Below are positions 1-4,600 of a DNA stretch of 64,000 bases, piece after piece. The notes under the pieces are model-generated. The model was not told where the DNA came from. It worked only from the letters and a program-made list of their open reading frames with translations, and did no database searches. The stretch is from Chthoniobacterales bacterium. GTDB lineage: Bacteria; Verrucomicrobiota; Verrucomicrobiia; Chthoniobacterales; Chthoniobacteraceae. Both the position numbers and the translations under genes were made by a program. The stretch is from contig JBBQZX010000016.1 of the NCBI GenBank assembly GCA_038207335.1, positions 1-64,000 on the forward strand, written 5' to 3'. Position 1 is the first letter of the stretch. Every line of letters starts with the position of its first letter.

Positions 1-53
1 CCGACATCGATCCCAGCGCGGACTTGGGGAGCGGGTTTTGGAGGTTGTTTCAT
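1..53 (-). CDS. IS110-family (DEDD) recombinase/transposase, N-terminal 17 codons only; continues off the left edge
   Basis: The reverse complement of 1-53 reads ATG AAA CAA CCT CCA AAA CCC GCT CCC CAA GTC CGC GCT GGG ATC GAT GTC GG = MKQPPKPAPQVRAGIDV(G). GIDV near the N-terminus matches the first catalytic Asp motif of IS110 RuvC-like domains. The motif alone is not unique (ASKHA/ROK proteins share it), but it lies directly downstream of a bridge-RNA-like region. Too short to appear in the supplied ORF track. Confidence 0.75.
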   Translation of the reverse strand, partial: MKQPPKPAPQVRAGIDV

Positions 54-99
54 GGGCGTTGTTTGGGTTTACTGTGGAGCCATCGGGAAGCCGACTCCG

Positions 100-330
100 T
101 GCAAATGTCCTCGACCGACCTTGTCAATACAGGCTCCCCGCCGCGGCAACGCGGCGGTGGCCTCAGATACTCTCCGGCGTGGACAAAAGAGTCGGGGGAC
201 CGATCTAACGAACAGGGTCGCGGCGGAGCGATCACACCGCCGGGCCCTCAGGCGTCTGCGGCCTCCCGAAAGCGCATGCATCTTCTCCCAAAACCCTTCA
301 CGCTGGCAGCTCGTTTTCGGCATGAAGACG
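100..330 (-). ncRNA. Predicted bridge RNA with target-binding loop (192-269) and donor-binding loop (106-185)
   Basis: Target loop: outer stem 259-269 pairs with 192-202, inner stems 245-248/214-217 and 237-242/221-226. It encloses left guide CAGACGCCT (250-258) and right guide TCGTTAG (205-211) in the context CCG-guide-GAGGG...ACCCTGT-guide-AT. Donor loop: outer stem 181-185/106-110, inner stems 160-163/131-134 and a perfect 8-bp hairpin 138-145/150-157. Its motifs CCGG-AGAGTATCT and TGTATTGACAAGG closely parallel the IS621 donor loop. The 5' and 3' ends are approximate. Confidence 0.8.
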
Positions 331-363
331 AGATACAAGGCGTCGCTACGCGCGTCCCATAAC

Positions 364-978
364 ATGAGAACCATTCTCTTCCTTCTCTGTCCTTTGATCG
401 CCTGCGCTTCCAGCCGGGGCGCGGAGGATCAACCCAAGGGCGATCCGCAGCCACTGGGTCTCACCAAGTTCGACCGAACCATCATCGACGCTCACGAACA
501 AGGCTACCCCATGTCGTGCATCGCGAGTTCAGTGGAGATGCTCCTGAAGCTGCTTGGTCAGGTGCCGAATTCGTATCGCGACCTGCAACTCGCGTGGCGA
601 AACAAGTCTGATGGCTGCTGGCGCGACTTCAACAACAAGACCTTTGCGGGTGTAACCTTCAGGTATCACGAAGGCTACTCGATGGATCAATTGTTCGAAT
701 CGATTGACCGTGAACTCCATGCCGGGCGGTTTGTAGTCGTAGGGCTCCGCAGCCCCGGCGGAACCCACAGTTGGGTAGTCTATGATGAGGACACCAGCGG
801 AGAGTTTCTGGCGATCTCCAAGGACCGAAGCCGCACCATCGAAGAGCGGCACGTCAAGGAGGCTATCATCCGACAGCAAGGTAGCGACCTAGGGACTTAC
901 GAATTTCCTACTTCACCGATGCGCCTCCAGAGCGCGCCACCCCGATTTCAACCCGGACCGCCGGCATTTCAACCGTGA
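364..978 (+). CDS. Cassette 1: secreted papain-fold, C39-like cysteine peptidase (204 aa)
   Basis: The likely start is ATG 364, not the ORF-track start at 52, which lies inside the IS. Signal-peptide-like MRTILFLLCPLIACASSRGA. Motif Q-x5-C (EQGYPMSCIASSVEMLLKLLG) and downstream GTHSWVV...FLAISKD resemble the C39-like catalytic Cys/His arrangement. Confidence 0.65.
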   Translation: MRTILFLLCPLIACASSRGAEDQPKGDPQPLGLTKFDRTIIDAHEQGYPMSCIASSVEMLLKLLGQVPNSYRDLQLAWRNKSDGCWRDFNNKTFAGVTFRYHEGYSMDQLFESIDRELHAGRFVVVGLRSPGGTHSWVVYDEDTSGEFLAISKDRSRTIEERHVKEAIIRQQGSDLGTYEFPTSPMRLQSAPPRFQPGPPAFQP

Positions 979-1050
979 GTGCCCTTCCACGACTTGCTGT
1001 TACTGACGGATGGCAACTACCTTCATCACGTCAATGACGACACCCGCAAC

Positions 1051-1173
1051 GCCTAACCATGCGCTGCAGCGAACTGCTCCGGGCGTCACGGGACTGCTTC
1101 CACCGCCACCTTGCCGCCTGCCATGCAGCTCCCGCGCCGCCCTCCGCCGTCGCTGAGCTTGGGGTCGTTAGGC
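1051..1173 (+). other. attC recombination site (123 bp), complete
   Basis: R'' GCCTAAC 1051-1057, 5-nt spacer, L'' GCTGCAGC 1063-1070 followed by GAAC. On the other arm: GTC, L' GCTGAGC 1152-1158, 8-nt spacer, R' GTTAGGC 1167-1173. R'' and R' are perfectly complementary, and the L arms pair with two extra unpaired bases, as expected for attC. Confidence 0.92.
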
Positions 1174-1194
1174 GGTCGCTACACGCATCCCGTA

Positions 1195-1554
1195 ATGGAG
1201 CATCATCAGACATACCGTCACGCGAGCAATTCATCCACGCGCTTGCATCCGCTGCCGTTGCTTCTCGTCATTGCGCTTCTGTTTTCCTCCTGCGCGACAA
1301 CACCTCCGCGCCAAGCCACCAAGATCGACATCGAGAGTCTATCCACGCGTGCCATCGCCAAACGCGAGACATGGGTCGGAGCCCCCTATTGTGTTGCCGT
1401 GCAAGACAAATATGACGGGACGTGGCGCGTCGAAGCTCACGCCATCGATCCCACTCACATAGACTGCGGGTGCGTTCTCTTTGTGCCAGGGTCGAGCAGA
1501 GAGATACTTTTCAGTCCTTCGGGGCGCCTTATCAGTTACTTTTCTCCGCAATGA
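1195..1554 (+). CDS. Cassette 2: small putative lipoprotein of unknown function (119 aa)
   Basis: ATG lies 21 nt after R'. Hydrophobic stretch LPLLLVIALLFSSC ends in a lipobox-like Cys. The stop codon is 7 nt before the next R'' box. Confidence 0.7.
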   Translation: MEHHQTYRHASNSSTRLHPLPLLLVIALLFSSCATTPPRQATKIDIESLSTRAIAKRETWVGAPYCVAVQDKYDGTWRVEAHAIDPTHIDCGCVLFVPGSSREILFSPSGRLISYFSPQ

Positions 1555-1561
1555 CCGCAAC

Positions 1562-1631
1562 GCCTAACCATGCGCTGCAGCGAACGGCTCCGGGGTCGGT
1601 GGCAATGTTTGAGAGCTAGGGGACGATGGGG
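1562..1631 (+). other. Second attC: intact left arm, missing or degenerate right arm
   Basis: 1555-1594 matches 1044-1083 at 39 of 40 positions (R'' 1562-1568, L'' 1574-1581). No intact L' or R' follows. 1613-1630 matches 1155-1172 at 14 of 18 positions. Confidence 0.7.
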
Positions 1632-4600
1632 ATGCTGTTGGTGCCGCGGCCGGCGTTGACTTTGGTGTAGAGGTCGCTGCCGCCGGAGAGGGTGAAGGTG
1701 TCGTTGCCCGCTCCGAGGCCGACTTTCACGGACTCGAATCCGGTATAGCTGACGCCGAGGCCGAGGCCGGTGAGGGCGCTGAGGGTGAGGAGGCCGTTGT
1801 CGCCGGTGGCAAAGCCGGTGTCGTCGATGGTGAGGAGGTCGGGCTTTTTGGGGTTTGCGCCTGCGTCGAGGGTGACGGGGCCGGCGATGCCGCCCAGAAT
1901 GCCGCCGGGGCCGGGGGCGCGGCTGCCGAGGGCGATGCGGTCGCTGCCGAGGCCGGTGGCGATGGTGAGGAGGCCGGTGGTGGCGCGGATGTTGACGATG
2001 TCATTGCCCGCGCCGGTGTCGATGGTGACGGCGAAGGCGGGGGTGGAGTCGATGGTGAGGGTGTCGCTGCCGGAGCCGAGGGCGATGTGGAGGGCGGCGA
2101 GGCCGGTGAAGGCGATGCCGGCTTTGCCCATGCCTTCGCCGAGGAATGCGGTGGCGGTGAGGTGGCCGGCGGTGGCGGCTTTGCTGGCGGCGCCGGCGAT
2201 GCGGAGGAGGTCGGCGCCGCTGCCATCGAGGATGATGGCGCCTTTGATGGAGGTGAGGTGGCCATTGGCGTCGCCCGCGGTGAAGGTATTGATGCCGGCG
2301 CCGCCGTGGAGGGTGACGGTGGTGGCCGCGCCGCTGCCGGTGATGGCGGCGGTGTCGCTGCCGCTCCCGAAGGCGATATTCAGCGCGCCGATGGCGTGAT
2401 ATTCGACCACGCCGGTGCCGCTGCCGAGTCCACCGAGGACGGTGGCGGAGAGGGTCCAGGCGCGGGCGGCGGTGTTTGCGGAATCGTCGATGGCGAGGGT
2501 GTCGTGCCGGGTGCCGAAGATGCGGATGAGGCCATCGATGCCGCCCACGATGCCGCCGATGCCGGGGAGGGCGCTGGCGGAGGTGCCGATGTTCACGAGG
2601 TTTGTGCCGGTGCCGGTTTTGATGCTGACGGTGGTGCCGGCCTGGCTGGCGGCGATATTGAAGGTGTCGTCCCCTGCTCCGCCATCGAGGCTGGCGGCGG
2701 TGCCGAATGCGGCGGGGCTGACGCTGAAGGTGTCGTTGCCAGCGTCGCCGGTGATGCGGTCGCTGCCCTCGCTGACGATGAGGAAGTCATCGCCGCTGCC
2801 GCCTTTGATCTGATCGGCGCCTCTGCCGCCATCGATGAGGTCGGCACCGCTGCCGCCGGTGAGTTTGTCGTTGCCCTCGCCGCCGAGGAGTGTGGCCGCG
2901 CCTTTGCCGGCGGTGAGGGTGTCGCGGCCCGCGCCGCCGTCGATGAGGACGGGGATGGGATCGAGCTTGGCGTCGATTTTCACGGTGTCGTCGCCGAGGC
3001 CGCCGAAGATCTCGATGCGGTTGGTGGCGAGGAAGTCCATGACGAGCTTGTCCGCGCCGGTCTGCTTCTCGATGAGGGTGAGGCGGATGGAGTCGGCGAC
3101 TTTCCTGGTCTTGGCGAAGGTGATGCTGTCGGTGCCTTCGCTGCCGCCGATGAGGAGGATGAAGCGGCCGGGATTTGCGTCGTCGGGGAGCTGGAGGAAG
3201 GTCGCGATATTAAGCGGGACGGTGACGCTGGTGACGATGTCGGTGTCGTGGTCGGCGAGGGTGAACTCGACGGCGAAGGTGTCGGCGGTCGTGGGGCTGA
3301 AGGTGAGTTCGCGGCCCGCGCCGACGGCGACGACGTTGCCGACGGCGTCGAGGACGCGCCAGTTGGTCTCGACGTTGCCGACGATCGGCGCGCCGTCGAG
3401 GAGGGCGTGGAAAGTGAGGGGCTGGCCACGGACGCCGTCGGTCGGGCCGCCGATGCCGAGGCCGGTGGTGGTGGCCGGGAGGAAGGTGAGCGCGGCGACT
3501 TCGAGCGGGGCGTCGGCGGTGCCGAATGCGCCGGTGACGGGATCGGTGAAGCTGAAGTGGACATCGAACCGTCCGGTGCCCGCCGGTGCGAAGATGAGCT
3601 GCGCGCCGCTGCCCTGCGCGACGACGGTGTTGTGGCTGTCGGTGACGGTCCAGGTTGCGTTTCCGGTGAGCGGGGTGGCTCCGTCGAGCAGGCCGTCGAA
3701 TGTGAGGGGCTGGCCGTGGAGGCCTTGCAGCGGGCCGGTGATCGTGGCGTTCAGCGTGGCCGTGGCGGCGACGATATTCAGCGGCGCGATGCTGGCTCCG
3801 ACCGCGCCGGTGGCGGGATCGCGGAGATCGAAACGGACGCGATATTGTCCCGCGACTGCCGGTATGAAGGTGAAGTCCGCGGCGCTGCCGCTGGCGATGA
3901 CGGTGTCGCCGGAGTCGAGCACGGACCATGTCGCGGCGAAGCCCGCGGGGATGGCAAGGCCGTCGAGGAGTGCGGTGAAATTCAGCGTCTGTGCGAGCGC
4001 CGCGGTCTGAGGGCCGACGAAGCGGACATCGAGGGTGGGGATCGGAGCGGTGACGAGGAGGGTGGCGGTGGTGGTGCTGCTCGCGCCGGTGGCGGGATCG
4101 GTGAGTGTGAAGGAGACGGTGTAATTTCCAGCGGTCTGCGGGGTGAATGTGAACGTGTCGCCGCTGCCGGTGGCGGCTTCGACATTTGCGCCATCGACCG
4201 CAGACCATGTGGCTGTGAGGCCCGCGGGGACGCCGCCGATTCCGAGCAGAGCGGTGAAGGTGCGAACCTGACCGCGCACGGCTTCGACCGGGCCGCTGAT
4301 GCCGGCGGTGAGCGTGGGCAGCGCCGCACCCACATGGAGCGTGGAAGCCGCGACGCCGATGACGTTTGCGCTCGCATCGGAGAGCGTGAACTCGACGCGG
4401 TAGTCGTCGGCCGCGCCGGGGATGAACTCGAAGTCCGCCGCGGTGCCGCTGCCGACGACGACATCCGCGCTGTTGACGACGCTCCACGCGAAGGTGTCGC
4501 CGGCGGCGAGCGCGCTGGAGTCGAAGAGGCCATTGAAGGTGAGGGTCTGTCCGACGGACGCGAAGGTGAGACCGGTGAGGCCGATGGTGCGAGGGGCGTC

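Follow-up and report, generated by a model that had tools for sequence, protein, structure and literature searches.

The window analysed here, a 64,000-nt stretch at the very start of contig C16 in a draft genome of 5.17 Mb (G000), begins inside an IS621-like element of the IS110 group, whose predicted bridge RNA reads the R' core of integron attC sites together with the first bases of the next cassette. In sister copies, insertion at this point rebuilds the GTTRRRY consensus of the attC site, which the integron integrase would probably still use, albeit less efficiently. The features of the locus are collected in Table 1.

Table 1. Features at the left end of the element and in the adjoining cassette array (window positions).
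Feature	Position	Strand	Remarks
First 17 recombinase codons (MKQPPKPAPQVRAGIDV, including the first catalytic Asp)	1..53	-	Remainder past contig end
Left non-coding end, encodes predicted bridge RNA	54..337	-	Conserved in 10 aligned elements
Handshake GT of right donor guide	119-118	-	
Right donor guide ACAAG, pairs with CT-TGT of left end	120..124	-	Conserved alignment column block
Left donor guide AGAGTATCT, identical to element right end plus core	165..173	-	Sister right ends
Handshake AT, directly after right target guide	204-203	-	
Right target guide TCGTTAG	211-205	-	Reads attC ...TCGTT-AG
Left target guide CAGACGCCT	250..258	-	Reads first bases of downstream cassette (GCGTC on +)
CT core of left junction (AG on +; positions 4-5 of former GTTAGGC)	338..339	-	
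Cassette start left behind insertion (GCGTCGCTACGC...)	340..363	+	Similar starts after empty attC
Cassette gene, 204 aa	364..978	+	No Pfam match
Intact attC	1051..1173	+	R'' GCCTAAC 1051-1057, L'' 1063-1070, L' 1152-1158, R' GTTAGGC 1167-1173
Second cassette gene, 119 aa	1195..1554	+	No Pfam match
Broken attC, 5' half (R''-L'') only	1562..1594	+	Array ends here

Read on the minus strand, the cassette start (...GCGACGC) is followed by the CT core, TGTAT..., the non-coding region, and the recombinase ATG at 53, with the left end beginning CTTGT (339-335) and the 17 codons ending in GIDV where the contig stops. This N-terminus is that of family members P0003 and P0021 by protein comparison. The guide-bearing left end measures 285 nt and holds all four guides upstream of the recombinase gene; its consensus fold has two internal-loop hairpins, and 7 of 62 pairs are compensatory. 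The initial annotation had named the two donor guides, and both were confirmed. When the 276-nt non-coding end was shuffled 5000 times with dinucleotides preserved, neither AGAGTATCT nor the four guide motifs jointly appeared even once, but ACAAG alone appeared 753 times, so that this 5-mer is weak evidence when taken singly. The two target guides (258-250 and 211-205) come in addition to that earlier pair.

Window bases 236 and 243, in the stem of the target loop, differ from the unitig of run X1 (below) and from contigs C22 and C41, and may be copy-specific changes or an assembly error. Rfam gave no match on window positions 1-1700. Scanning for sigma-70 promoters found none in the left end or in the right end on contig C36; the computed circle junction scores only 8/12 as a promoter (TTGCCA, 16-18 nt spacer), which is a weak hint. 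A 220-nt contig over 83-226, at depth 3 in a run guessed to be RNA, was considered as a sign of expression and rejected.

The assignment to IS110 draws on a full-length homologue, L011, which matches PF01548 (E 1.3e-20) and PF02371 (E 3.4e-18), that is, a DEDD RuvC-like domain and a Tnp domain with the catalytic serine. A homologue aligned to IS621 and ISCro4 at E 1.8e-35 and 8.8e-37, with D, E, D, D, and S in register; the roles of these catalytic residues in an IS621-type recombinase are described in PMC11208158. A CT core is common to both junctions, one right end (C29) having TT. As far as its sequence can be compared, the element is IS621-like.

Contig C16 starts inside a collapsed repeat, and the far junction of the window copy therefore lies outside the readable sequence. 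Contigs C1, C22, and C41 also end in this left end, with the same junction. A Pfam search for both recombinase domain families across the G000 contigs returned no matches, because the repeat is collapsed and the middle of the gene unassembled. Run X1, possibly the source sample, yields the element body as a single unitig of 1281 nt with a depth of 88 against 12-13 in the flanks, corresponding to about seven collapsed copies. This unitig extends 1008 nt past the start of C16, a length sufficient for reaching the right end. In run X2, the peptidase cassette is covered and positions 1-285 are not, but this missing cover carries no weight.

Three right ends are assembled in G000: at the start of contig C36, in an internally deleted relic on C28, and at the end of C29. 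All three abut attC. Those on C36 and C28 read AGAGTAT-CT-AACGA-N3-AAGCTCAGC, which on the cassette strand is attC...GTTAG-ATACTCT (attC-GTTAGATACTCT), and in both a full attC with R'' GCCTAAC, ending GCTGAGC-N8-GTT, precedes ATACTCT. C29 reads GTTAA-ATACTCT. The junction TCGTT-AG-ATACTCT, which the initial annotation had forecast from the donor guide, was thus found exactly at two of three sister right ends and in a variant at the third; the accompanying forecast, that the rebuilt core would still fit GTTRRRY, holds at all three. The C-terminal peptide of C29 and the N-terminal peptide of the window match one and the same protein family.

Homologues elsewhere give a similar picture. Among six contiguous close homologues (G007:C4, G251:C388, G280:C1, L031, L032, and G176:C25), five show the predicted junction, and the full-length 1.34-kb homologue G007:C4 carries both junctions on one contig. 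A flank-free pattern run over five related genomes gave 12 matches, one of them by chance; of the 11 genuine right ends, 10 continue CT-AACGA, a count that leans upward because two of the five genomes had been picked by a flank-including pattern, and 9 have the attC L' box. L067 and L087 were set aside as chance pattern matches. Since sister copies rebuild GTTRRRY, the window copy likely does so too, and its far junction is very probably of the GTTAG-ATACTCT type.

It is improbable, in comparison, that the far end of the window copy lies off attC, whether because the copy is rearranged, truncated, or recombined with another copy, or because it sits at an attI-like or off-target site. Such cases do occur: G176:C25, the exception among the six homologues, has a left flank of the cassette type but an off-target one on the right, whose matching left flank is on another contig, and is either a rearrangement or a mis-join. 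Its mismatched flanks mean that a left flank is no sure predictor of a right flank. The right ends of G137:C19 and L055 lack an attC body, C28 is an internally deleted relic, and the G000 assembly has four left ends against just two right ends at contig termini. Against this, the body of the element in X1 is a single unitig long enough to reach the right end, the window's left flank matches the guide perfectly at a normal cassette start, and every assembled G000 right end borders attC.

Several irregular copies were recorded along the way. The relic (G000:C28:22700-23240) has lost the left end and the start of the cassette; what remains is the right end with ~70 nt of recombinase gene, joined to the 3' portion of a cassette gene. 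It was found just once in G000 and so gives no sign of movement. In G176, C25 and C45 (L012/L083, L008) share an off-target insertion at GGACGC-CT-GACGA within a repeat-protein gene, and the flanks of the off-target copy appear swapped with those of an attC-type copy. A ~63-nt repeat-like insertion breaks the donor-binding loop of L068 (G280:C1) at the left donor guide and likely disables that copy. Beside a recombinase fragment, at G000:C30:33987-34040 and further upstream, a related element is represented by a left end that has diverged and decayed.

Target guides and flanking sequences vary together within the clade. In 24 clade members with both flanks available, the right target guide matched the element's own flank at 4.54 of 5 positions and the flanks of other members at 1.52, and the left target guide matched at 4.72 against 1.92 (18 parsed of 24). 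Every occupied site (15/15) had no more than one mismatch to the left target guide, as did 17/37 empty attC sites (Fisher p=1.4e-4), in a comparison that pools related, non-independent genomes; for G000 alone, the figures were 4/4 and 4/11 (p=0.08). The intact attC of the window is empty, and the cassette start after it has two mismatches to the guide. The element is specific for attC and lies antisense to the cassette array.

In a midpoint-rooted FastTree of 31 sequences, seven members with a right flank starting AAC form one clade (support 0.99), including one Latescibacterota record. An eighth such member, L057, is placed apart from them, so the attC-core target may have arisen twice. Members of the sister clade L039-L054 share the donor end; their target is GAGATC-CT-TCGCC, within a palindromic repeat, and their right end is much longer. 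A protein search of 401 genomes of the phylum at E 1e-60 found nothing; two Latescibacterota genomes hold one whole copy along with some fragments, and intI was not found in them at E 1e-40. A guide-motif search of 301 genomes of the class matched 11, but reversed controls matched about as often, and the search was discarded. The junction 15-mer matched 103 viral contigs, none of them with a recombinase match, and these were treated as chance.

How the insertion would proceed can be outlined from IS621. The guide matches are observed; by analogy, the circular element (donor AGAGTAT-CT-TGTAT) would recombine with the target GACGC-CT-AACGA, whose cassette strand reads TCGTT-AG-GCGTC. The integrase crossover lies between G and TT of GTTRRRY (PMC8876359), and among attC sites only GTT/AAC is conserved (PMC2727003, PMC5027507). 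As the AG core lies downstream of the crossover, the upstream attC retains R'', L'', L', and GTT, as seen in the sister copies, and as it occupies R' positions 4-5, the element swaps only positions 6-7. The right end would supply these (AT for GC), again as in the sister copies. The rebuilt sites on C36 and C28 show R'' RYYYAAC, the L''/L' boxes, and R' GTTRRRY.

The initial annotation had further held that the upstream attC stays recombinable, and this stood in part: the consensus and the four inner R-box pairs are kept, but two outer pairs are lost (on the bottom strand, two Watson-Crick pairs become one T-G wobble and one mismatch), and predicted folding drops. Folding was computed as pfold, with the constraint on L boxes and four R pairs after Loot et al. 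(PMC5371416). With positions 6-7 swapped in 14 perfect empty sites, the median pfold dropped from 0.62 to 0.41; when pairs were enforced, it dropped from 0.55 to 0.30. Rebuilt sites folded alone reach 0.27-0.41, a drop of ~1.8-fold, and Loot et al. call values above 0.1 high (PMC5371416). When 15-40 nt of flank were included, seven G000 sites fell from 0.18-0.55 to 0.0001-0.056 on swapping, a decrease of 10- to 100-fold or more. The actual sites on C36 and C28 stood at ~0.03 and 0.003 (range 0.003-0.035). The possibility that the right end contains a specific competing structure was considered and rejected, as shuffled right ends lower pfold about as much.

The in-context drop is what would be expected if the element does target the attC core but leaves a site that is practically dead for the integrase, the fit to GTTRRRY being a coincidence of a fixed donor end and the insertion mostly freezing or fusing cassettes, as has been proposed for the IS1111-attC elements. 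The donor end is indeed fixed: it is AGAGTAT in 26/31 clade members and AGAGTGT in 5/31, whatever the target, so the AT completing the core belongs to a donor end common to the clade and is no adaptation to attC. That terminal AT is what the handshake guide pairs with (PMC11208158). For ISPa21, insertions may immobilise cassettes, the experimental evidence being limited according to PMC11616780. Nevertheless, GTT and the four pairs that define the recombinogenic fold are kept, and the rebuilt sites all exceed a pfold of 1e-5, the level of the poor sites in PMC5371416; in that paper, a site near 1e-5 with a good partner recombined significantly less, and recombination is not stated to be absent.

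The state of the R'' box bears on the same question. Canonical TAAC was present in R'' at 5/15 occupied attC sites against 30/36 empty ones (p=0.0009), a tally made by hand that omits contig-end-cut sites and one false match and spans differing but related genomes. The other occupied sites had another base before AAC (4) or a lost or mutated R'' (6; lost, p=0.14 against empty). This enrichment of non-canonical R'' fits a dead site, but it may equally reflect survivorship, with the integrase having removed copies at good sites; occupied sites may decay, or copies at good sites may be removed. All three occupied G000 sites retain TAAC. Weighing these points, I consider it doubtful that the rebuilt site is practically dead; by these folding predictions, it would probably be recombined by the integrase at a reduced rate.

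The 204-aa product of the cassette gene is likely a C39-like cysteine peptidase, a lead only: its ESM Atlas feature score to a C39-like cluster is 0.94, and its ten best family-bearing ESM Atlas matches all fall in one family or clan. The attC at 1051-1173 has a pfold of 0.55 as site only and ~0.21 with 15-40 nt flanks. Recombination by the integrase between it and the rebuilt attC would excise ~2.2 kb, namely the element and the peptidase cassette, where the empty cassette would be a unit of 0.83 kb. Loot et al. report that excision dropped for cassettes of at least 1500 bp when one site folds poorly (PMC5371416), and excision of the longer unit is predicted to be rarer than that of the empty cassette. 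The other three G000 left-end copies have no complete attC within 3.5 kb downstream, which leaves only the window copy placed for integrase excision.

An intact intI gene is present on G000 contig C3 (478.8 bits, cut-off 265), and the G007:C4 element adjoins a partial intI-like reading frame, for which no Pfam or tblastn match was obtained. Mobility by both the element's own recombinase and the integron integrase would be plausible. At none of the copies examined was there a genomic footprint that only integrase could make, and carriage by the integrase as a real route of spread is a tentative proposal. Equally tentative is the broader idea that this IS110 lineage acts as a stowaway cassette prefix, inserting just past the crossover, leaving a working attC, and spreading by its own recombinase and by IntI-excised cassette circles; G137:C19 and L055 would then be such units at attI. 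The right end of G137:C19 matches the likely G000 attI core at 11/12 bases. It does not, however, show integrase action: its flank matches the guide fully, no intI was found beside it in the loci examined, and direct insertion explains it equally well.

Other features of the array and of related loci were observed. In the intact attC, L'' (GCTGCAGC, 1063-1070) set against L' GCTGAGC leaves an unpaired L'' base that is C on the bottom strand and not the usual G. A giant open reading frame (1616-64000, minus strand, >20,794 aa) runs off the window, its 3' end abutting the broken attC (1562-1594); within the 2000 aa scanned there are RTX calcium-binding repeats and PKD domains, and the product is likely a giant surface adhesin. 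A second element, at the ends of G000 contigs C15 and C24 and at L011 5497-5889, starts TGT right after R'' (GCCTAAC) and thus sits at the other end of attC sites; it encodes a protein with the integrase core domain PF13683 and is presumably IS481-like. In G310, three empty attC 3' halves (L127, L137, L138) are preceded by one foreign sequence ending ...AACACGCCC, which suggests another element inserting mid-attC.

Compared with the bridge recombinases IS621 of E. coli and ISCro4 (PDB 8wt6, 9t56) of the IS110 group (Durrant et al., 2024, PMC11208160; Hiraizumi et al., 2024, PMC11208158), the element is alike in its DEDD RuvC-like and Tnp domains, its CT core, a non-coding RNA in the left end with four guides in the same order, and the handshake AT after the right target guide. 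The target loop of IS621 is set to REP elements, while that of the present element is set to the attC R' core and cassette start, and here, unlike there, insertion leaves a consensus recombination site of another system. Excision by IS621 is reported to be weaker than insertion, perhaps copy-and-paste (PMC13626964; bioRxiv 10.64898/2026.08.31.748434), and by analogy the many stable copies seen here would fit such behaviour.

The IS1111-attC group (ISPa21, ISPst6, ISKpn4, ISPa25; PMC11187229, PMC3001079, PMC11616780, citing Tetu and Holmes, 2008, and Post and Hall, 2009) likewise comprises attC-specific elements of an RNA-guided DEDD recombinase family lying antisense to the cassette array. Their guide RNA is described as lying downstream of the transposase gene and their insertion as near the attC 5' end (PMC11187229, PMC3001079). 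In the present element, in contrast, the RNA is upstream of the gene, with only 29 nt from the stop codon to the right end, and the insertion point falls in the R' box at the 3' end of attC, two bases beyond the crossover of the integrase, which makes the element part of the downstream cassette. By the position of its RNA and its insertion at the attC 3' end, it does not belong to that group. Group IIC-attC introns are also attC-specific, on the bottom strand and opposite to cassette transcription, but they are retroelements, and one of them, S.ma.I2, splits a cassette gene from its own attC (PMC3001079), whereas the present element sits after a complete attC hairpin. No description of an IS621-type element at the attC R' core was found in the literature searched, mainly outside subscription journals.

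On the open question of whether insertion sequences that target attC freeze integrons or are carried along by them, experimental evidence is limited according to PMC11616780. This lineage offers a clean test between the two, because the insertion alters only two attC bases and keeps the crossover in place. A natural bridge RNA would here be programmed against the one sequence common to attC and attI sites, and the selection of cassettes by their first five bases could bias cassette persistence in environmental integrons.
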